64,000 nucleotides of DNA. Source: a virus. Taxonomy: Duplodnaviria > Caudoviricetes. A program made the position numbers and the translations under genes. This document shows, in pieces, positions 43,670 to 57,828 of this stretch. Under the pieces are notes generated by a model that did not search any database, was not told the DNA's origin, and saw only the letters and a list, made by a program, of their open reading frames with translations. The DNA lies in IMG/VR virus record IMGVR_UViG_3300021066_000068, positions 46,135-110,134 of that record. One strand, written 5' to 3'. The first letter of the stretch is position 1. Each line of letters begins with the position of its first letter.

Positions 43670-43711
43670 AACGTAGACCCACTTGACCCCATGTGTCAAG
43701 GCGTCTACATT
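43670..43711. promoter_or_regulatory. Overlapping divergent promoters at the main strand switch
   Basis: Plus TTGACC-17-TACATT; minus TTGACA-18-TACGTT; CTTGAC..GTCAAG inverted repeat. Confidence 0.65.
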
Positions 43712-45833: not shown

Positions 45834-47121
45834 GGCTATTGTCGCGGCCATTGGCGCCGTCGCCCTGCTCATCATCGGCTATATGACCATGGGCATCAAC
45901 ACCAACGGCTATCGCACCGTGGTGCAACGCCCCTCGGGCTACACCTTCGTCAAGTTCACCCCCGGCCCCTACCTGCACTGGTTCGGCTCGGCGGAATCCT
46001 ATCCCGACATCATCACCTTCGACTTCGACAAGAGCCAGGACGGCGGCGATGTCCGCTCCATCGAGCAGCAGGGGATCGCTGTCCGCTACCAGGATGGCGG
46101 CACAGGCGTCATCTACGGCCAGGGGCGCTATAACCTGCCCAACGACGAGCCGACGATGGTTTCCCTGCACCGGGCGTTCCGCTCGGCCACTGGGCTCGGC
46201 CACAAACTGATCAAGCCGACGGCGGAAGAACGCATCAACCTCACCGCCGGTCTGATGACCTCGGAAGAGGCCTACACCACCAAGCGCGGGGTGTTCACCG
46301 AGTGGGCAAGAGACCAGATTCAGAAGGGCAAATACAAGACAACCTTACAGAAGATGCAGGCCAAGGAAGAGGGGACGCAGGAGACCGTCTACCGTGACTT
46401 TCCGGTGATCGAATACGGCAAGGATGGTCAGCCTATTTACCTCGATAACGACTTCACCATTTATGGCATTACCCTCTCGGGCTTCCAGATCGTCGATTGG
46501 AACTTCGAGGACAAGACCCTGGAGCAGATCGCCGCCAAGCGCGGAGCGACCATGGCCATCATCACCGCCAAGGCCAACGCCGAAAGGGCGAAGCAGGACG
46601 CGGAGACGGCCAAGCAGGAAGGCATCGCCAAGGTCGCCGTCGCCCAGTATGAAAAAGAGGTCGAGAAGAAAAAGGCCGAGGTGGACGCCGAAAAGGACAA
46701 AGCCGTCGCCGTCACCAAGGCCGAGCAGTTGAAGGTGGTGGCCGAAACCAACGCCAAGCAGCGAGTTGCCGTGGCCGAGCAGGACAAGCTAGAGAAAGAG
46801 CAGAACAAGCTGGCCATGGCCGAATACAAACAGGCCGAAACCCTCAGGGGTGAAGGCGACGCCTCCTATAAGAAAGCCGTGATCGAGGCCGATGGCGCCC
46901 TTGCGCAAAAGCTGCAAACCTACGAGAATGTCATGGCCATTTTCGCCAAGGAGTTCGGCCGTCAAAAGTGGGTGCCGGAAATCGTCTTCGGCGCCAATGC
47001 AACACCCGGGGGCAGCGGCAATCAAGCGGCCGATTTAATCAACCTGCTCAATGCCAAAACCGCCAAGGACCTGTCCCTCGACTTAGGGGTCGCCGGTCCC
47101 CGCAACACGGCGCAAAAGTAG
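45823..47121 (+). CDS. SPFH/band-7 domain protein
   Basis: N-terminal TM, SPFH core, long Ala/Glu/Lys coiled coil. Confidence 0.8.
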   Translation: MPTKAIVAAIGAVALLIIGYMTMGINTNGYRTVVQRPSGYTFVKFTPGPYLHWFGSAESYPDIITFDFDKSQDGGDVRSIEQQGIAVRYQDGGTGVIYGQGRYNLPNDEPTMVSLHRAFRSATGLGHKLIKPTAEERINLTAGLMTSEEAYTTKRGVFTEWARDQIQKGKYKTTLQKMQAKEEGTQETVYRDFPVIEYGKDGQPIYLDNDFTIYGITLSGFQIVDWNFEDKTLEQIAAKRGATMAIITAKANAERAKQDAETAKQEGIAKVAVAQYEKEVEKKKAEVDAEKDKAVAVTKAEQLKVVAETNAKQRVAVAEQDKLEKEQNKLAMAEYKQAETLRGEGDASYKKAVIEADGALAQKLQTYENVMAIFAKEFGRQKWVPEIVFGANATPGGSGNQAADLINLLNAKTAKDLSLDLGVAGPRNTAQK

Positions 47122-52793: not shown

Positions 52794-53020
52794 TGGGAAC
52801 CTATGACACCAGAGGCGGAGCCGCCGTCAGTCCTCGCGATGAGGAGCCGGGCTCCGCTGAAATCGAACTCAACCGCGCCGAGTGGGCCATCATCATCCAG
52901 GCCGTGCAGAGCTACGATGGACCCATTGGGGCCGCGGATCGCAAGGACATTCTAGCTCTAGCGCACAAGCTGTTTCCGCTCCGGGACGCCCGCGGCGCAC
53001 ATATCGAGGTGTGGGAGTAG
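52793..53020 (+). CDS. Hypothetical protein
   Basis: TAATG-coupled. Confidence 0.55.
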   Translation: MGTYDTRGGAAVSPRDEEPGSAEIELNRAEWAIIIQAVQSYDGPIGAADRKDILALAHKLFPLRDARGAHIEVWE

Positions 53021-53052
53021 TCCCCGCCTTTTTCTTTAGAGGGAGAGAGAAG

Positions 53053-53388
53053 ATGCGCTTCACACGCCGGATCAAGAACGCCCTGGAGAACGCTGCCGCC
53101 AGCGCCGCGGCGGGGGACGGCATGGGTGACGGCGACATTTCTGCCGTCAACTTTGACGCCATGCCCGACGCCCTAGATTGGGTCAACAGCCTTCCAACGG
53201 ATGGGGCAGTGGTGGCGCTCACCAAGACAGAAATTCGAGCCCTGGTACGTCTTGTGAATGCGGGGATCGGCTCGACCGACGTTGTGGAGCCAAAAGAGAA
53301 GATCGCCATTCGCGCCCTCGGCAAGATTATCAATGCCGCGGGCAAAGAGTGGGACCAGTACGCTGGTTGCGTCCGCACGAACTTGTAG
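53053..53388 (+). CDS. Hypothetical protein
   Basis: GAGGGAG RBS. Confidence 0.55.
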   Translation: MRFTRRIKNALENAAASAAAGDGMGDGDISAVNFDAMPDALDWVNSLPTDGAVVALTKTEIRALVRLVNAGIGSTDVVEPKEKIAIRALGKIINAAGKEWDQYAGCVRTNL

Positions 53389-53397
53389 GAGGGGCGC

Positions 53398-53580
53398 ATG
53401 ACCAAGAAGAAGCTCGGGGACGACCTGAGCACCTGGAGAGCCCACTTAGGGATGACCCAGAAGGAGGCGGCAGACTTTCTCTTCGTCCCCATCCGGACGT
53501 ACCAAGAATGGGAACAAGGACGAAGGGCCCCCAAGCAGGCTGGACCGTTGCGAAAGGTGCTGGAGTTGAGCAGGCGTTAA
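53398..53580 (+). CDS. XRE-family HTH protein
   Basis: WRAHLGMTQKEAADFL.VPIRTYQEWEQGRR.P. Confidence 0.85.
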   Translation: MTKKKLGDDLSTWRAHLGMTQKEAADFLFVPIRTYQEWEQGRRAPKQAGPLRKVLELSRR

Positions 53581-53624
53581 AAATTCTGCTTGCCTCCCGC
53601 CGACTCCGCGAGTAGAAGGCCTGC

Positions 53625-53726
53625 ATGACGCTGATCCGCACCATTTCCGAGCGCGCGATTAAGGGGGCAGCCATTGCCGCCTGCGCCGGAGTGTGCGTCG
53701 ATAATACCGAAAACGGTAGCGCGTAA
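53625..53726 (+). CDS. Putative leader peptide 1 (Ile/Asn) of tRNA sub-operon 1
   Basis: TTGCCT-17-TAGAAG-6nt-ATG; MTLIRTISERAIKGAAIAACAGVCVDNTENGSA. Confidence 0.45.
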   Translation: MTLIRTISERAIKGAAIAACAGVCVDNTENGSA

Positions 53727-53796
53727 CCATCCCTCTCCCTTGAAGGACCCGAGCCAACAAAGCTTCCTTCATGTGAGGAGGGGGAGTAAGCCCTGT

Positions 53797-53872
53797 TCCC
53801 CGATAGCTTAAGAGGCGAAGCATCCGACTGTTAATCGGAAGATTGCAGGTTCGAGGCCTGCTCGGGGAGCCA
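53797..53872 (+). tRNA. tRNA-Asn(GTT)
   Basis: Cloverleaf, loop CT-GTT-AA, CCA end. Confidence 0.92.
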
Positions 53873-53946
53873 TGCAACGTTAGCTCAATGGCAGAGCGCC
53901 CGCTTGATAAGCGGTAGACTCCGGTTCGATTCCGGCCGTTGCACCA
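53873..53946 (+). tRNA. tRNA-Ile(GAT)
   Basis: Loop TT-GAT-AA, TTCGATT T-loop, CCA end. Confidence 0.9.
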
Positions 53947-53948
53947 CA

Positions 53949-54012
53949 CTCCGTTAGCTCAGAGGTAGAGCCATTGTGGCTCAGGAAGACGCGGGTTCGA
54001 TCCCCGGCACCA
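53949..54012 (+). pseudogene. Degenerate tRNA-His(GTG)
   Basis: D-arm, TT-GTG-GC loop, T-loop and CCA present; 5' anticodon stem and 3' acceptor strand deleted. Confidence 0.6.
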
Positions 54013-54016
54013 GGAC

Positions 54017-54094
54017 GGTCTCGTAGCTCAGATGGAGGAGAGCGCCAGTTTCCGAAACTGGAGGTCAAAGGTTCAAGTCCTTTCGAGATCGCCA
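54017..54094 (+). tRNA. tRNA-Arg(CCG)
   Basis: CCAGT-TTCCGAA-ACTGG arm, CCA end. Confidence 0.9.
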
Positions 54095-54099
54095 ATCAC

Positions 54100-54175
54100 T
54101 GCTCGGTAGCTTAGCAGTCAAAGCCTCCGGCTCATAACCGGAAGATCGTCGGTGCAAATCCGACCCGAGCGACCA
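54100..54175 (+). tRNA. tRNA-Met(CAT) (Met/fMet/Ile2 identity unresolved)
   Basis: TCCGG-CTCATAA-CCGGA arm, TGCAAAT T-loop, CCA end. Confidence 0.85.
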
Positions 54176-54184
54176 ACCTTCAAC

Positions 54185-54261
54185 GGTTCCGTAGCTCAGT
54201 GGAAAAGAGCGGTTGCCTTCTAAGCAATTGGTCGCAAGTTCGAATCTTGCCGGAACCGCCA
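54185..54261 (+). tRNA. tRNA-Arg(TCT)
   Basis: Loop CT-TCT-AA, CCA end. Confidence 0.92.
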
Positions 54262-54299
54262 TTGGACTATAAAATACCGTTATGCGCAGCGCAGACAGC

Positions 54300-54524
54300 A
54301 TGGCGAGACAAAGGTTTGGCGGGTTCACCGTCGTGGAGCACCTTGGGCAGGTGGGGTGGAAGTGCGTCTGCGACTGTGGCCGCATAGTTTACAGGTCCAA
54401 ATCAAAGCTTGCAAAAAACAAAGGTGGATGTGCCGTATGTGCAAAGCGACTGACTAACGTCAGGCTGTTGTGTTGCAACTGTCACGCTCAGACCCCTACT
54501 TACAAAAACAAGAAACGTACTTGA
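54300..54524 (+). pseudogene. Internally deleted HNH homing endonuclease remnant
   Basis: WKCVCDCG N-terminal module joined to NVRLLCCNCHAQTPTY without the central His motif. Confidence 0.55.
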
Positions 54525-54555
54525 CAGTTTTTGTCGGCTCTGACAAAAACCTCCC

Positions 54556-54615
54556 ATGTTCGCACGCCATACCACAACCCGAACGACCACCACCCGCACA
54601 GCGCAGAAACGCTGA
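54556..54615 (+). CDS. Putative leader peptide 2 (Thr-rich) of tRNA sub-operon 2
   Basis: TTGACA 35 nt upstream of the ATG; MFARHTTTRTTTTRTAQKR, 8 Thr in 19 aa. Confidence 0.75.
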   Translation: MFARHTTTRTTTTRTAQKR

Positions 54616-54650
54616 GTGCGGGCGCTCCCTATGGGCGCCATCCACAACTC

Positions 54651-54726
54651 GGATCGGTAGCTCAGTGGTTAGAGCAGTCGCCTTTTAAGCGAAAGGTCGT
54701 GGGTTCAAATCCCACCCGATCCTCCA
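54651..54726 (+). tRNA. tRNA-Lys(TTT)
   Basis: Loop CT-TTT-AA, CCA end, U73. Confidence 0.92.
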
Positions 54727-54730
54727 AGAC

Positions 54731-54807
54731 GAACCGATAGCTCAGTTGGCTAGAGCAGCGTCCTCTTAAGTCGAAGGTCGGTGGTTCGAATCCACCTCGG
54801 TTCACCA
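54731..54807 (+). tRNA. tRNA-Lys(CTT)
   Basis: Loop CT-CTT-AA, CCA end. Confidence 0.9.
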
Positions 54808-54809
54808 AC

Positions 54810-54886
54810 GCTATCGTAGCTCAGTCCGGTAGAGCATCCGCTTGGTATGCGGGAGGCCGCAGGTTCAAATCCTGCCGATAGCACCA
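54810..54886 (+). tRNA. tRNA-Thr(GGT)
   Basis: Loop TT-GGT-AT, CCA end. Confidence 0.92.
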
Positions 54887-54890
54887 TTTT

Positions 54891-54965
54891 GCTGGACTAG
54901 CTCAAGGGTAGAGCATCCACCTCGTAAGTGGGAGGCTGTGAGTTCGAGTCTCACGTCCAGCACCA
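54891..54965 (+). tRNA. tRNA-Thr(CGT)
   Basis: Loop CT-CGT-AA, CCA end. Confidence 0.92.
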
Positions 54966-54967
54966 AC

Positions 54968-55046
54968 GCTTCCGTAGCTCCAAATGGCTAGAGCGCCCGT
55001 TTTGTACTCGGGAGGATGCCGGTTCAAGTCCAGGCCGGAAGCACCA
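54968..55046 (+). tRNA. tRNA-Thr(TGT)
   Basis: Loop TT-TGT-AC, CCA end. Confidence 0.88.
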
Positions 55047-55048
55047 CT

Positions 55049-55468
55049 TTATTCGCCAGCGCTCTTGTCGATGAGTGCCGCCCGTCTCGCATCAACGAGG
55101 TCACCAAACTTCTTGTCGAGGTCGCTGGCGGCGATGCGCACCCGCGAAGCGTGGTCCACCACCCGGTTGTCGGCGTAGTGGTAGGTGCGAATGGTCTCGG
55201 TCACCTTGGCGGCCTCGGGCGCCTGCTTCCTGATCTGCACCTCGATCCACGTCTTGAGCTTGGCGCCGAGGTCCAGAAAGGCATTGCGAAAGTTGGTCGT
55301 GCGGCTGCGGTCGCGCTGGCCTGTCGCACTCAAGCCCGAGAGGGGATGCGTGATCCGCACGCAGGCTTGTACCTTGTTGCGGTTCTGCCCGCCCGGTCCT
55401 GTTCCCGAGAACCAGTCGATTTTAAAGTCCTTCTTGGTGTAGCAGAACTGCTCGATACGCTCGCCCAT
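55049..55468 (-). CDS. Release-factor-like peptidyl-tRNA hydrolase (GGQ domain only)
   Basis: SGTGPGGQNRNKV..CVRITH...RSR..N...IRTYHY..NRVVDH. Confidence 0.9.
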   Translation of the reverse strand: MGERIEQFCYTKKDFKIDWFSGTGPGGQNRNKVQACVRITHPLSGLSATGQRDRSRTTNFRNAFLDLGAKLKTWIEVQIRKQAPEAAKVTETIRTYHYADNRVVDHASRVRIAASDLDKKFGDLVDARRAALIDKSAGE

Positions 55469-55513
55469 GTCGCCCCCTTGACGCTCATTGATTCTTCACG
55501 TACAGCATATCCC

Positions 55514-55570
55514 ATGGATCGACAGCTATCATCTAGCTCACAAAGTTTGCGCTCGCTTTATTTAAGCTGA
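55514..55570 (+). CDS. Putative leader peptide 3 (Ser/Leu/Gln/Tyr) of tRNA sub-operon 3
   Basis: TTGACG-17-TACAGC-7nt-ATG; MDRQLSSSSQSLRSLYLS. Confidence 0.75.
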   Translation: MDRQLSSSSQSLRSLYLS

Positions 55571-55615
55571 GCGCCCGGCGCCTTTGTGCGCCCACGATCC
55601 ACCCAATCCCACTTC

Positions 55616-55691
55616 GCCTCTGTAGTCCAACGGTAGAGACAATGCGCTCAGAACGCATCAAGTGCTCGTTCGAATCGAGCCAGGGGCACCA
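55616..55691 (+). tRNA. tRNA-Leu(CAG), short variable loop
   Basis: ATGCG-CTCAGAA-CGCAT arm, CCA end. Confidence 0.88.
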
Positions 55692-55697
55692 CTTTCA

Positions 55698-55785
55698 GGA
55701 GCGGTCGGCTGAAGATGGTCGGCGAACGGTCTCGAAAACCAGAGGGACCGAAAGGTCAGGGGTTGGAATCCTCACGCCTCCGCCA
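55698..55785 (+). tRNA. tRNA-Ser(CGA), divergent
   Basis: Loop CT-CGA-AA, long variable arm, non-canonical T-loop TTGGAAT, imperfect acceptor. Confidence 0.7.
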
Positions 55786-55792
55786 CCTATTA

Positions 55793-55879
55793 GGGCAGTT
55801 GGCCGAGTGGTAAGGCACCAGCATGCTAAGCTGGCGAAACCGAAAGGTTGCGGGAGTTCGAACCTCTCACTGCCCGCCA
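55793..55879 (+). tRNA. tRNA-Ser(GCT)
   Basis: CCAGC-ATGCTAA-GCTGG arm, long variable arm, GCCA end. Confidence 0.9.
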
Positions 55880-55897
55880 AATTTTATGGGGTGAAGA

Positions 55898-56407
55898 ATG
55901 CTAAAGGATACAGATGCGGCATGGCTCGCTGGGTACATTGACGGTGACGGCACGATTGGCCTTTATCGAAAGACGAGAACTGGAAACCGGCAGGCCGCGC
56001 TTTGCATAGATTCTGCCGATCTGGAATTGCTGAATAACGTTATCCGGTTGGTCGGGGGGTCGCTTGTAAAGAAGAAAAAGTACGCGGCACACCACCGACA
56101 ATCGTGGACGTGGAGGATGTACGGCTCTCAAAACATCCGAGGGGTGCTCGCCCAGGTACTTCCCCACCTGCGCTGCGCTTTTAAGAAAGAGCGCGCTCGG
56201 ATGTTGGTGGAGGAGTGGACATCCACCAGGAACGGTGTCTACGGAAGAGATGACGCAGTGCTAAAGAGAGATTTCGAAGAGCGGTTTTTGGCGTTAGGGG
56301 AAGGCAGAGGGAAGCGAGCTTCCTTGAAGGGGGTACACCAAACCATAGAACACATGACATCACACCCACGCCCTCCTGCCTACTTGGGCAAACAAATGCA
56401 AGCGTGA
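55898..56407 (+). CDS. LAGLIDADG homing endonuclease (free-standing)
   Basis: AWLAGYIDGDGTI motif; VLPHL..KKERA. Confidence 0.85.
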   Translation: MLKDTDAAWLAGYIDGDGTIGLYRKTRTGNRQAALCIDSADLELLNNVIRLVGGSLVKKKKYAAHHRQSWTWRMYGSQNIRGVLAQVLPHLRCAFKKERARMLVEEWTSTRNGVYGRDDAVLKRDFEERFLALGEGRGKRASLKGVHQTIEHMTSHPRPPAYLGKQMQA

Positions 56408-56482
56408 CCCGAGCGGCAAAGGGTGGGGCCTGTAAAGCCCCTGCTTATAGCTTCGCAGGTTCGAGTCCTGCCGCTTGCACCA
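56398..56482 (+). tRNA. tRNA-Tyr(GTA)
   Basis: GGGGC-CTGTAAA-GCCCC arm, long variable arm, CCA end. Confidence 0.92.
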
Positions 56483-56483
56483 T

Positions 56484-56558
56484 TCTCTCGTCGTCTAATT
56501 GGTAGGACGCCATCTTCTGGGGTTGGATATTGGGGTTCGAGTCCCTGCGAGAGAACCA
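56484..56558 (+). tRNA. tRNA-Gln(CTG)
   Basis: Loop TT-CTG-GG, CCA end. Confidence 0.88.
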
Positions 56559-56562
56559 AACA

Positions 56563-56636
56563 TCCCCTTTCGTCTAATGGTCGGATACCGCACTTTGACT
56601 GCGTAGATCGTGGTTCGAATCCACGAAGGGGAACCA
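56563..56636 (+). tRNA. tRNA-Gln(TTG)
   Basis: Loop CT-TTG-AC, CCA end. Confidence 0.9.
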
Positions 56637-56637
56637 T

Positions 56638-56714
56638 GGCCGCCTATCCCAACTGGCAGAGGAATGGGTGTTAAACTCCCACAAGTCTCGGTTCGAATCC
56701 GAGGGCGGTCACCA
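56638..56714 (+). tRNA. tRNA-Leu(TAA), short variable loop
   Basis: Leu-type D-arm, loop GT-TAA-AC, CCA end. Confidence 0.8.
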
Positions 56715-56894
56715 CTTTTCCACACCCCTCCTAGCCTTTTCGTGCGTCCTCTGATAGGATGTAGAATGATAGTGCGAGCAGGATTTGGCCACCTGTCCCA
56801 GTGCCCCGGTCCACTGGCTAAGTCGGACAAGAATGCGGTGGCCTTGAAAACCAGCGCAGGAAAGCCGGGACAGTTCCTAAAGGGGGGGGCATGG

Positions 56895-57324
56895 ATGGGG
56901 CGATCTGGGTATCACGACGGCTGCGAAGGGTGGGATTTGATCCGCTGGCGCGGCGCTGTCGCTAGCTGTCGCTAGCTCCATCCGGGGGAAGCGGGGGCAA
57001 GCCTTCTTGCGGGAAATGCTTGCCGCCCTCGACACCCTGCCAGAAAAGAAGCTCGTCGCATCAGACCTTGAGCGGGACGGCGCGGTATGCGCCCTGGGTG
57101 CCGTTGGGAAAGCGCGCGGCATCGCCCTCGACGCAATCGATGCCTATGACCGCGACACGGTGGCGGGAACGTTTGGTATCCCCTTGGCGCTCGCCTGCGA
57201 AATCATGTTCGAGAACGACGAGGGGACTTGGTGCCGCGAGGAGCCCGAGGCGCGCTTTGCCAGGGTGCGCGCCTGGGTCGAAAGCAAGTTGATCGAGTGG
57301 CGAGAATTGCCAGACACAGAGTGA
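56895..57324 (+). pseudogene. Conserved phage protein frameshifted by a 10-bp tandem duplication
   Basis: MGRSGY...WRGAVAS then SIRGKRGQAFLREML in another frame; GCTGTCGCTA duplicated at 56955-56974. Confidence 0.75.
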
Positions 57325-57408
57325 GTCAGCGGAGGGTCACATGACATTCAAGCCCAACGGGGTCTATATCCTGGAGGACGGTGAGATCATCGAGCTTCTG
57401 GGGGTAGC

Positions 57409-57828
57409 ATGACGGGAACCAATGGGGCCTCGCCCCTCAACCTTGTCCACCGTCTGTGGCAGGAAGCCAACGCCATCTTCGCCAAGCAGGTGCAGAGCAA
57501 GGTGAACATCACCGAGCGGCGCTTGGCCATCCTCCTGGCCCTCAAGGAGGCTGATTCCATTTCCCAGCGGGAGTTGTGCCGCCGCACCGGCATCGACCGC
57601 TCCACCATTTCCACGGTCCTGCGCTGCCTGGACCATGCCGGGTTGATCTCCCGCGCCCGGCGCCAGGGCGATGCGCGGTCCTATATGCTGTCCTTGACCC
57701 CTGCCGGAGAGGCCCTGGTCAGAAAGGCCCGGCCTCTGGCCGAGGCCGCCAACGCGGAGATTTCCGAGCTTCTTCCCCCTAAGGCATGGAAGGACGTAGC
57801 GGAGTTGTTGGACAGATATGAGTTTTGA
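57409..57828 (+). CDS. MarR-family transcriptional regulator
   Basis: ISQRELCRRTGIDRSTI...GLISR...DARSY.LSLT..G. Confidence 0.9.
   Translation: MTGTNGASPLNLVHRLWQEANAIFAKQVQSKVNITERRLAILLALKEADSISQRELCRRTGIDRSTISTVLRCLDHAGLISRARRQGDARSYMLSLTPAGEALVRKARPLAEAANAEISELLPPKAWKDVAELLDRYEF

Follow-up and report, generated by a model that had tools for sequence, protein, structure and literature searches.

Short reading frames matched to the tRNA genes behind them in a tailed-phage genome probably form part of ribosome-operated sensor cassettes

The window analyzed here is a 64,000-nucleotide (nt) stretch of a virus of the Caudoviricetes (IMG/VR record IMGVR_UViG_3300021066_000068, positions 46,135 to 110,134) and comprises the last 64 kb of a 110-kb phage record; coordinates without a contig label are window positions. 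Its tRNA genes lie between 53797 and 56714, in three groups. The third group, a sub-operon on the plus strand (55616-56714), starts with a CAG-anticodon tRNA at 55616, and the 147-nt gap between this tRNA and a divergent gene for a GGQ/RF-1-domain protein holds the element under study, leader 3 (type D). Leader 3 comprises a promoter-like site (55478-55506, plus strand), an open reading frame (ORF) of 18 codons followed by TGA (55514-55570, plus strand), and a tail with predicted RNA structure that reaches the first tRNA. Two other leaders lie upstream on the plus strand: leader 1 (type A, 53590-53796) and leader 2 (type C, 54521-54650). Homologs of the leader 3 ORF were found in three related lineages (L060:9908-9964, L064:10244-10300, and L072:6013-6069).

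Fourteen of the 17 non-start residues encoded by the leader 3 ORF belonged to the four amino acids served by the downstream tRNAs (Ser, Leu, Gln, and Tyr). Because the region is AT-rich and pyrimidine-rich, shuffle controls preserved the local composition. Dinucleotide-preserving shuffles of the 51 body bases reached 14 of 17 in 2 of 50,000 cases, and mononucleotide shuffles in none of 50,000. Relative to the composition of the long ORFs of the phage (S+L+Q+Y = 0.209), the binomial probability was 1e-7. The other five frames of the leader DNA did not have the bias. Among approximately 600 short ATG ORFs of the whole 110-kb genome, leader 3 had the highest S+L+Q+Y share (0.82), and the next best ORF had a share of 0.58. 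An earlier reading of this DNA, made from the sequence alone (hereafter the sequence-only reading), had noticed this composition and had suggested comparing it with random ORFs; leader 3 stood out against both the shuffles and the short ORFs of the genome. That reading had also described the codons as rare, and CTA (4%), TTA (3%), TCA (7%), TCT (8%), and AGT (5%) indeed represented only 3-8% of their synonyms in the long ORFs, as did CGA (8%).

Relatives of the window phage came from two protein look-ups. An exact look-up of the LAGLIDADG protein encoded in the third sub-operon returned the near-identical contigs L058 and L059 and a diverged relative (L057/L060), and homologs of the L060 RtcB ligase (76-78% identical) led to lineages L064, L065, and L072. 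The resulting comparison set contained 13 leaders from 5 lineages (window, L060, L064, L065, and L072). The nearest bacterial RtcB proteins were from Hyphomicrobiales, and the −35 boxes read CTTGAC, the alphaproteobacterial −35 consensus; for these reasons, the host of the window phage is probably an alphaproteobacterium, presumably of the Hyphomicrobiales. Homologous clusters lacking an S/L/Q/Y-rich ORF would have counted against the sequence-only reading. Instead, an S/L/Q/Y-rich ORF of the same length occupied the same place in every homologous cluster recovered (L060, L064, and L072).

Leader-to-block matching was most complete in L060. Its tRNA genes cover all 20 amino acids and are divided among four blocks, with a short ORF at the head of every block (the coverage includes a Phe gene found by Rfam only and a Ser(CGA) gene found only with relaxed ARAGORN settings). 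In leader A (33 codons), 24 of 32 residues were Asn, Ala, Ile, Val, Cys, Gly, Asp, or Glu. Leader B (21 codons) had 15 of 20 residues in Phe/Arg/Trp/Pro/His/Met and used all six Arg codons ahead of three Arg isoacceptors. The corresponding values were 9 of 18 in Lys/Thr for leader C and 14 of 17 in Leu/Ser/Tyr/Gln for leader D. The matrix of leaders against blocks was near-diagonal: 62 of 87 residues were cognate to their own block, and the true assignment was the best of the 24 permutations, with the runner-up at 44. No random same-size partition of the 20 amino acids reached 62 (0 of 2,000,000; maximum, 59). In L072, leader A was cognate at 25 of 31 residues.

Composition changed as tRNA genes moved. 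Internal ATG or ATA codons were present in the leaders of five of the six sub-operons with a CAT-anticodon tRNA and in none of the seven without one (13 leaders, partly related by descent), and the sole exception was the orphaned, deletion-derived leader 1 of the window. L072 has CAT tRNAs in blocks A and D and none in B; its A leader contained two internal ATG codons, its D leader an ATA codon, and its B leader neither. In L060, the CAT tRNA is in block B, and ATG and ATA codons occurred in the B leader only. The B-type leader of L065, which precedes Thr, Trp, Met, Pro, and His tRNAs, contained Thr codons three times and lacked Phe codons; in L060 and L072, where block B has a Phe but no Thr tRNA, the B leader had one Phe and one Thr codon. 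Both between lineages and between the four leader types, composition thus changes in step with the tRNAs gained or lost.

The remaining leaders of the window fitted this pattern to different degrees. The leader 2 ORF (54556-54615) encoded eight Thr and one Lys among 18 residues and precedes tRNAs Lys TTT, Lys CTT, Thr GGT, Thr CGT, and Thr TGT. Its nine cognate residues were reached by 43 of 50,000 dinucleotide-preserving shuffles (binomial P = 3e-5 relative to the long ORFs), and it was the richest in Lys+Thr among the approximately 600 short ORFs. For leader 1 (ORF 53625-53726, 33 codons), cognate enrichment in the window was not significant in the shuffle test. This ORF was identical at 99 of 102 positions to leader A of L060 (L060:7037-7138), and it is an orphan: its Ala, Val, Cys, Gly, Asp, and Glu codons match tRNAs that the relatives carry and that are deleted here. 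The window phage is, by comparison with its relatives, a deletion derivative without tRNAs for Ala, Val, Cys, Gly, Gly, Asp, Glu, Phe, Arg(ACG), Trp, and Pro and without leader B. The weak match of leader 1 is explained by the deletion of its cognate tRNAs, with leader A kept nearly unchanged.

The middle of the ORFs was rewritten between lineages while the frame was kept. When the D leaders of the window and of L064/L072 were compared, the first three and last four or five codons were common, and it is these shared ends that RNA pairing constrains. Leader D had 18 codons in both the window and L064, with 14 of 17 and 13 of 17 cognate residues, respectively. Insertions and deletions between lineages were many, and their lengths always summed to a multiple of 3: +1, +1, and −2 within 15 nt in leader C (window vs. 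L060), a net −6 in leader B (L060 vs. L072), and a net −3 in leader A. The stop codon remained in the 3′ arm of the same hairpin across lineages. Between the D leaders of the window and L060, the ORF differed by 1 change in 57 bases, which was synonymous, whereas the tail differed by 8 changes in 45 bases. As judged from these alignments, selection acts on the reading frame and not on the peptide sequence.

The position of the ORFs relative to the promoter was also constant. In leader 3, a −35 box TTGACG (55478-55483), a 17-nt spacer, and a −10 box TACAGC (55501-55506) are followed by 7 nt and the ATG; a strict sigma-70 scan did not call this promoter, the −10 box being weak. A TTGAC-like box (one of them TAGACG) started 34-36 nt before the ATG in all 13 leaders of the five lineages; a spacer of 17 nt separated it from a weak −10 of the TA type, which lay 5-7 nt from the ATG. 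A Shine-Dalgarno sequence was absent from all 13 leaders, whereas the neighboring protein genes have one. This layout is that of a leaderless mRNA, and we infer the transcript start itself from the geometry. The spacing was kept even where the promoter sequence was unrelated (leader C of L060 vs. the window) or where cassettes had been exchanged. The promoter of window leader 2 (−35 TTGACA at 54521) resembles that of L060 leader B, and cassettes have therefore been exchanged. We observed that the stop codon of an 80-codon Cys-rich ORF (54282-54524) lies within the −35 box of leader 2 (54521-54526) and that a different, 67-codon ORF of L060 likewise ends in the −35 box of leader B. A general excess of ATG codons at +35 from CTTGAC boxes in the genome was considered and rejected (8 of 81 sites vs. 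about 5 expected).

The 102-nt leader 3 RNA had a predicted minimum-energy fold of −36.5 kcal/mol (z = −4.8 vs. shuffles) with four helices, all on the plus strand. Helix P1 pairs TGGATCG (55515-55521), which includes the U and G of the start codon, with CGATCCA (55595-55601, the "ATCCAC box"); this 3′ strand and the C-rich, G-poor tract that follows it (together 55595-55615) extend to the first tRNA. Hairpin A (55524-55538), found in the window/L060 lineage only, lies inside the ORF and has a stem of five base pairs (bp) over codons 4-9. Hairpin B (55549-55574) has the last sense codon and the TGA in its 3′ arm, and hairpin C (55577-55592) consists of GGCGC, a 6-nt loop, and GCGCC. A hairpin over the TGA, a GGCGC/GCGCC hairpin, and a C-rich tract had all been described in the sequence-only reading and were present as described. 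Its parallel with leader 2 also held: leader 2 likewise has a stop-codon hairpin and a GGCGC/GCGCC hairpin, and the motif shared by the two leaders occurred exactly twice in the window, with 0 expected.

P1 was kept in all four D leaders, and B leaders had an equivalent in three different sequences. The helix was predicted independently in all 7 B and D leaders, from 4 different sequence pairs, one of which (B) was 9 bp long; the chance of each pair in shuffled tails was 3-8%. In A leaders, the AUG region pairs with a complement inside the ORF. Hairpin B of the D leaders in L064/L072 had its outer stem replaced by a different, perfect 8-bp stem and one U-A pair changed to U-G, and hairpin B of leader C showed two compensatory pairs. 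Hairpin C was GACGC/GCGTC in L060 (a compensatory G-C to A-T change relative to the window), GCGTCC/GGACGC in L064, and GCGCC/GGCGC with a 13-nt loop in L072, that is, four different sequences at one position across lineages. Covariation was thus present both within the predicted AUG-box helix P1 and within the GC hairpin C. The 45-nt tail of leader 3 contained C at 0.49 and G at 0.20, an excess of C over G reached by only the top 0.5-0.8% of windows in the genome, and the tails of leaders C and D as a whole were C-rich and G-poor (top 0.5-1.5%). In the B-type leaders of relatives, hairpin C is accompanied by a U-run.

Three other readings of the leader RNA or DNA were rejected. A closed leader acting as a tRNA-like cloverleaf had no Rfam tRNA match and no conserved CCA, a boxA/nut-like antitermination site in hairpin B was a weak likeness found in leader D only, and GGCGC..GCGCC as the operator of a dimeric regulator was set aside because only the pairing is constant, with variable sequence and spacing, as expected of an RNA element.

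We favor, at a probability of roughly two in three, a reading in which each tRNA sub-operon of this phage group is gated by one of a set of interchangeable cassettes, ribosome-operated and multi-codon sensors consisting of a promoter, a leaderless mini-ORF, and a structured tail. Because block-specific codon matching follows the payload, ribosome progress on the ORF would report the supply of those tRNAs. Host RNA polymerase would start at or beside the A of the ATG, and a ribosome would load on the 5′-terminal AUG during RNA synthesis and read 17-32 codons, often rare ones, for the amino acids of the tRNAs immediately downstream. With fast reading, the ribosome would reach the stop codon in hairpin B and leave, and the leader would close through P1 (the AUG end and the GATCCA box) and hairpins B and C. 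With slow decoding, when tRNAs are scarce or cut, the ribosome would stay on the ORF and the closed fold would be prevented. In folds with a masked ribosome, P1 was lost with the ribosome at codons up to about 7, hairpin B at later codons, and, in the window lineage, hairpins B and C with the ribosome at the stop codon.

The closed fold would correspond to low output and the occupied leader to high output, so that each block would be made when its own codons are read slowly. We draw this assignment from the analogy with attenuators and from the repair genes (RtcB, GGQ/PrfH-like) that adjoin the clusters. In the relatives, the gene immediately before the tRNA cluster encodes an RtcB RNA ligase, which the window phage lacks, and PrfH-like PCRF/RF-1 genes lie inside the cluster of L065 (loci L060:5626-7026, L064:7001-8392, L072:2451-3833, and L065:12659-13336). 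We count this proximity of the clusters to genes of tRNA repair and ribosome rescue (RtcB, GGQ, and PrfH-like) in favor of the sensor cassette. The helix that locks the AUG may allow loading only while the leader is being made, which would give a single co-transcriptional measurement per transcript. In B-type leaders, hairpin C and its U-run may act as an intrinsic terminator in the low-output state; in leaders C and D, the C-rich, G-poor tail suggests Rho-dependent termination or an effect on processing or stability.

Several observations weigh against a sensor of this kind. Under strict wobble, the anticodons of the leader 3 sub-operon can read 9 of its 17 codons; CTA, TCA (twice), TCT, and CTT are unreadable by them, and the CTG codon is absent despite the encoded CAG anticodon. 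The match of leader 3 to its tRNAs is at the amino-acid level more than at the codon level (14 of 17 residues vs. 9 of 17 codons), and the earlier description of a leader that mirrors its tRNAs almost codon for codon therefore stood for the amino acids and was too strong for the codons. In leader C, half of the residues are cognate, and leaders C and D repeatedly contain Arg codons although no Arg tRNA follows them. The comparison covered five lineages, two of them approximately 97% identical in the leaders, so that the counts are not all independent. No U-tract follows hairpin C of leader 3, where a scan called no terminator-like site, and the masked-ribosome folds showed no antiterminator pairing that competes with hairpin C. 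A multi-codon sensor, as proposed in the sequence-only reading, is partly supported: composition tracks tRNA content, whereas leader 3 showed neither a U-tract nor, in the masked folds, a competing pairing. Finally, hairpin C still formed with the ribosome at codon 5 or 10 and melted only with the ribosome at the stop codon.

This last result alone would suggest the opposite polarity, in which melting of hairpins B and C, and with it continued transcription, would require a ribosome at the stop codon. Good reading of the leader would then turn the tRNA genes on and slow reading would turn them off, a feed-forward or translation-competence check. In the window leaders C and D, hairpin C was indeed disrupted only with the ribosome at the stop codon, and its 5′ arm begins 6-7 nt after that codon. 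In L064 and L072, however, hairpin C lies approximately 20 nt past the stop codon, beyond a terminating ribosome, and the effect is not conserved. The hairpin C of leader D also lacks a U-run, and a phage regulated in this way would make fewer tRNAs when they are short, a poor fit with the nearby RtcB and GGQ repair genes. We consider this polarity unlikely.

A constitutive role would require less of the leader. The translated ORF and its pioneer ribosome would shield the tRNA transcript from Rho or from 5′-end-dependent decay, and the codons would reflect phage decoding in general. The leaders are C-rich and G-poor, like Rho loading sites, and P1 would cap the 5′ end. Such a helper would have no need for amino acids of its own block or for a composition that changes as tRNA genes move between blocks, and the rarest codons would weaken it; we judge it improbable, a little more so than a sensor of reversed sign.

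It is also conceivable that the leader is an untranslated structured 5′ region, a processing or stability element or a protein-binding site in which the frame is incidental. The conserved and covarying helices would be expected in that case, the start codon is paired in the final fold, and the support for translation comes from sequence only. An incidental frame would not explain the composition matching (P < 5e-7 in L060 alone), a bias confined to the ATG frame, a frame and length that survived many insertions and deletions, or a constant spacing between −35 box and ATG in 13 of 13 leaders; we give this reading very little weight. Action in trans by the small peptides or by released leader RNAs has a precedent in the attenuator-derived small RNA rnTrpL and the peptide peTrpL of Sinorhizobium, an alphaproteobacterium, at least in the cited parts of PMC6614838 and PMC7968998, and RNase P would free the leader as a stable, closed small RNA, but it is most improbable as the main function, as the peptide is unconserved outside the parts fixed by RNA pairing and block-by-block matching would be unexplained, although such action could coexist with a role in cis.

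A more specific version of the sensor-cassette reading, which we hold tentatively and at somewhat less than even odds, is a modular supply of "tRNA on demand". A phage with tRNAs for all 20 amino acids would keep them in four blocks, each activated through its own leaderless barcode ORF whenever ribosomes stalled on precisely those codons, for example after cleavage by a host anticodon nuclease, and the cassettes would be swapped and rewritten together with the tRNA genes. An AUG-locking helix would take the place of a classical terminator/antiterminator pair.

The sub-operon behind leader 3, all on the plus strand, contains the CAG-anticodon tRNA (55616-55691), tRNA Ser GCT (55793-55879), a LAGLIDADG endonuclease ORF (55898-56407), tRNA Tyr GTA (56398-56482), tRNA Gln CTG (56484-56558), tRNA Gln TTG (56563-56636), and a TAA-anticodon tRNA (56638-56714). 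The LAGLIDADG ORF overlaps tRNA-Tyr by the first 10 nt of the latter. Between the CAG tRNA and Ser GCT, at about 55697-55790, lies a Ser(CGA)-like gene that neither ARAGORN, even at a relaxed threshold, nor Rfam called; it has mismatches in the acceptor stem, copies in L060, L064, and L072 are intact, and the window gene is probably decayed. The sequence-only reading had listed TCG among the codons read by encoded anticodons, a match that depends on this gene. The L060 copy has a consensus promoter of its own immediately upstream (TTGACA-17-TATAAT). With 76-77 nt and a short variable arm, the CAG and TAA tRNAs are unusual for tRNA-Leu of bacteria; L060 has a Leu(CAG) with a normal long arm at the first position, and L072 has a short-arm TAG homolog. 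By anticodon, the two short-arm tRNAs of the window are tentatively Leu.

The GGQ (RF-1 domain) gene lies on the minus strand (55049-55468; Pfam RF-1, E = 1e-16), divergent from leader 3. It adjoins leader D in L064 as well and is absent at that place in L060 and L072; it is a neighbor of leader 3 and not a required part. At 53948-54016, between the Ile and Arg(CCG) tRNAs, we noted a tRNA-like stretch with a GTG (His) anticodon that was called by neither ARAGORN nor Rfam and that sits at the presumed deletion junction. Within block A of L060, a 31-codon Ile/Val/Leu-rich ORF (L060:7522-7617) starts at the CCA end of tRNA-Val and is absent from L072; it could encode a small membrane peptide or be another leader exposed by tRNA processing. 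Elsewhere in the window, on the minus strand at 43699, an ORF of 54 codons that resembles a real small protein has a CTTGAC box 37 nt ahead of its ATG, which makes it another candidate leaderless gene.

Other searches extended the comparison set little. The motif shared by leaders 2 and 3 had two matches in IMG/VR, both in coding DNA without tRNAs and attributed to chance. Two stricter leader-D patterns had zero matches in IMG/VR, and the first of them matched one Flavobacteriales metagenome-assembled genome among the GTDB genome contigs, again without tRNAs and taken as chance. When IMG/VR and JGI metagenomes were searched with the GGQ protein, its closest relatives (83% and 64%) had no tRNAs nearby and a different upstream region. 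The capsid protein, a 105-aa neighbor, and a MarR neighbor yielded no usable relatives as anchors, and GenBank phages searched by DNA and by capsid protein gave single tRNA matches only. The other RtcB relatives (L063, L066-L069, L073, and L074) had no tRNA clusters. Among further contigs, L009 has a small ORF with its own terminator before a tRNA-Pro, yet this ORF is not Pro-rich; L010 has no leader; and in L047, the promoter directly abuts the tRNA, with no leader. In Streptomyces phage Coruscant, the tRNAs are dispersed among small genes.

Ribosome-mediated attenuators with leader peptides include thrL, hisL, leuL, ilvL, pheL, and trpL, as well as pheM of pheST. The present leaders resemble them in having a short ORF, rich in the measured codons, upstream of the regulated genes and hairpins over and after the stop codon; leader 2 is like thrL in its Thr run, leader 1 is like ilvL in its multivalence, and a hairpin with a U-run is shared by the B-type leaders and phage phiCbK only. 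They differ from the classical cases in a payload of 5-10 tRNA genes in place of biosynthetic or synthetase genes, in an ORF that by its geometry stands at the 5′ end of the transcript without a Shine-Dalgarno sequence, and in the coverage of 2 to 10 amino acids by one leader. In addition, leader 3 has no U-tract terminator and no visible 2:3 antiterminator, and a predicted long-range helix locks the start codon. Covariance models of the Rfam Thr, His, Leu, and Trp leader families had no match here, and an Rfam scan of 53000-57500 with E up to 1 returned only tRNAs and chance matches, with no leader family and no T-box. T-box riboswitches likewise couple expression to a particular tRNA state through a 5′ leader RNA, but they bind tRNA directly without a ribosome, use a specifier loop and a T-box sequence, and control synthetase or amino-acid genes.

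Rho-dependent attenuators with leader peptides are represented by tnaC of the tna operon and mgtL of mgtA. In these systems, as would be the case here, ribosome position sets the access to a C-rich, G-poor stretch by the stop codon. The tails of leaders C and D share that composition, but this stretch, at 25-45 nt, is short, and P1 takes up part of it. The tnaC case is among those treated in PMC8429421, as far as the cited part extends. Mycobacterial leaderless polycysteine short ORFs are described as Cys-responsive attenuators in the cited part of bioRxiv 10.1101/834739. They share with the present leaders an AUG-first leaderless mRNA (here by geometry) and a short ORF of the sensed codon upstream of an operon; as described in that part, they respond to a single amino acid and regulate cysteine genes of a cellular genome that encode proteins, whereas here 2 to 10 amino acids and tRNA genes of a phage are concerned. 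Phage tRNA clusters have been interpreted as counter-defense against host systems that cut tRNAs (cited parts of PMC10264068, PMC11555353, and PMC12409363), and RtcB and GGQ/PrfH-type genes as repair functions (cited part of PMC9304027). The setting is the same, with phage tRNAs beside repair genes; in those parts, the counter-defense work concerns the tRNAs themselves and mentions no leader ORF.

A similar design was found in phiCbK, a cultured phage of Caulobacter. At L076:4042-4203 (NC_019405, 51341-51502), the promoter-to-ATG geometry is the same: a CTTGACA box, 17 nt, a −10 box, 7 nt, and the ATG of a 32-codon ORF. This ORF has 11 Tyr, Phe, Val, Ile, or Gln codons, 10 of them within the first 17, and is followed by an annotated rho-independent terminator and then by tRNAs for Tyr-like, Phe, Val, Ile, Ile, Val, Gln, and Gln. 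The Glu/Asp and Pro/Pro tRNAs of phiCbK are likewise closely preceded by annotated terminators.

Genes for tRNAs are usually thought to be controlled by their promoters, and, to our knowledge, leader-peptide sensing is known for amino-acid and synthetase genes and not for tRNA genes. Full-text literature searches that combined leader peptides and attenuators with tRNA operons, tRNA clusters, phage tRNAs, and ribosome stalling yielded no paper in which tRNA genes are controlled by a leader peptide. Relative to known leader-peptide control, the tRNA payload, the putative leaderless start, the multi-amino-acid barcode, and the predicted AUG-locking helix would be new.

The cassette is compact and modular; its approximately 140 nt divide into about 35 nt of promoter and about 100 nt of leader. 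Such cassettes may serve as ready-made, codon-specific reporters of stalling, and they offer leaderless ORFs that are annotated by their own payload; phiCbK on Caulobacter is a cultured relative of the design in which it can be tested now. If the sensor-cassette reading is true, then the leaders would close a feedback loop between decoding speed and tRNA supply, and phages of this kind would deploy their tRNAs against tRNA-cutting defenses only when they are needed.

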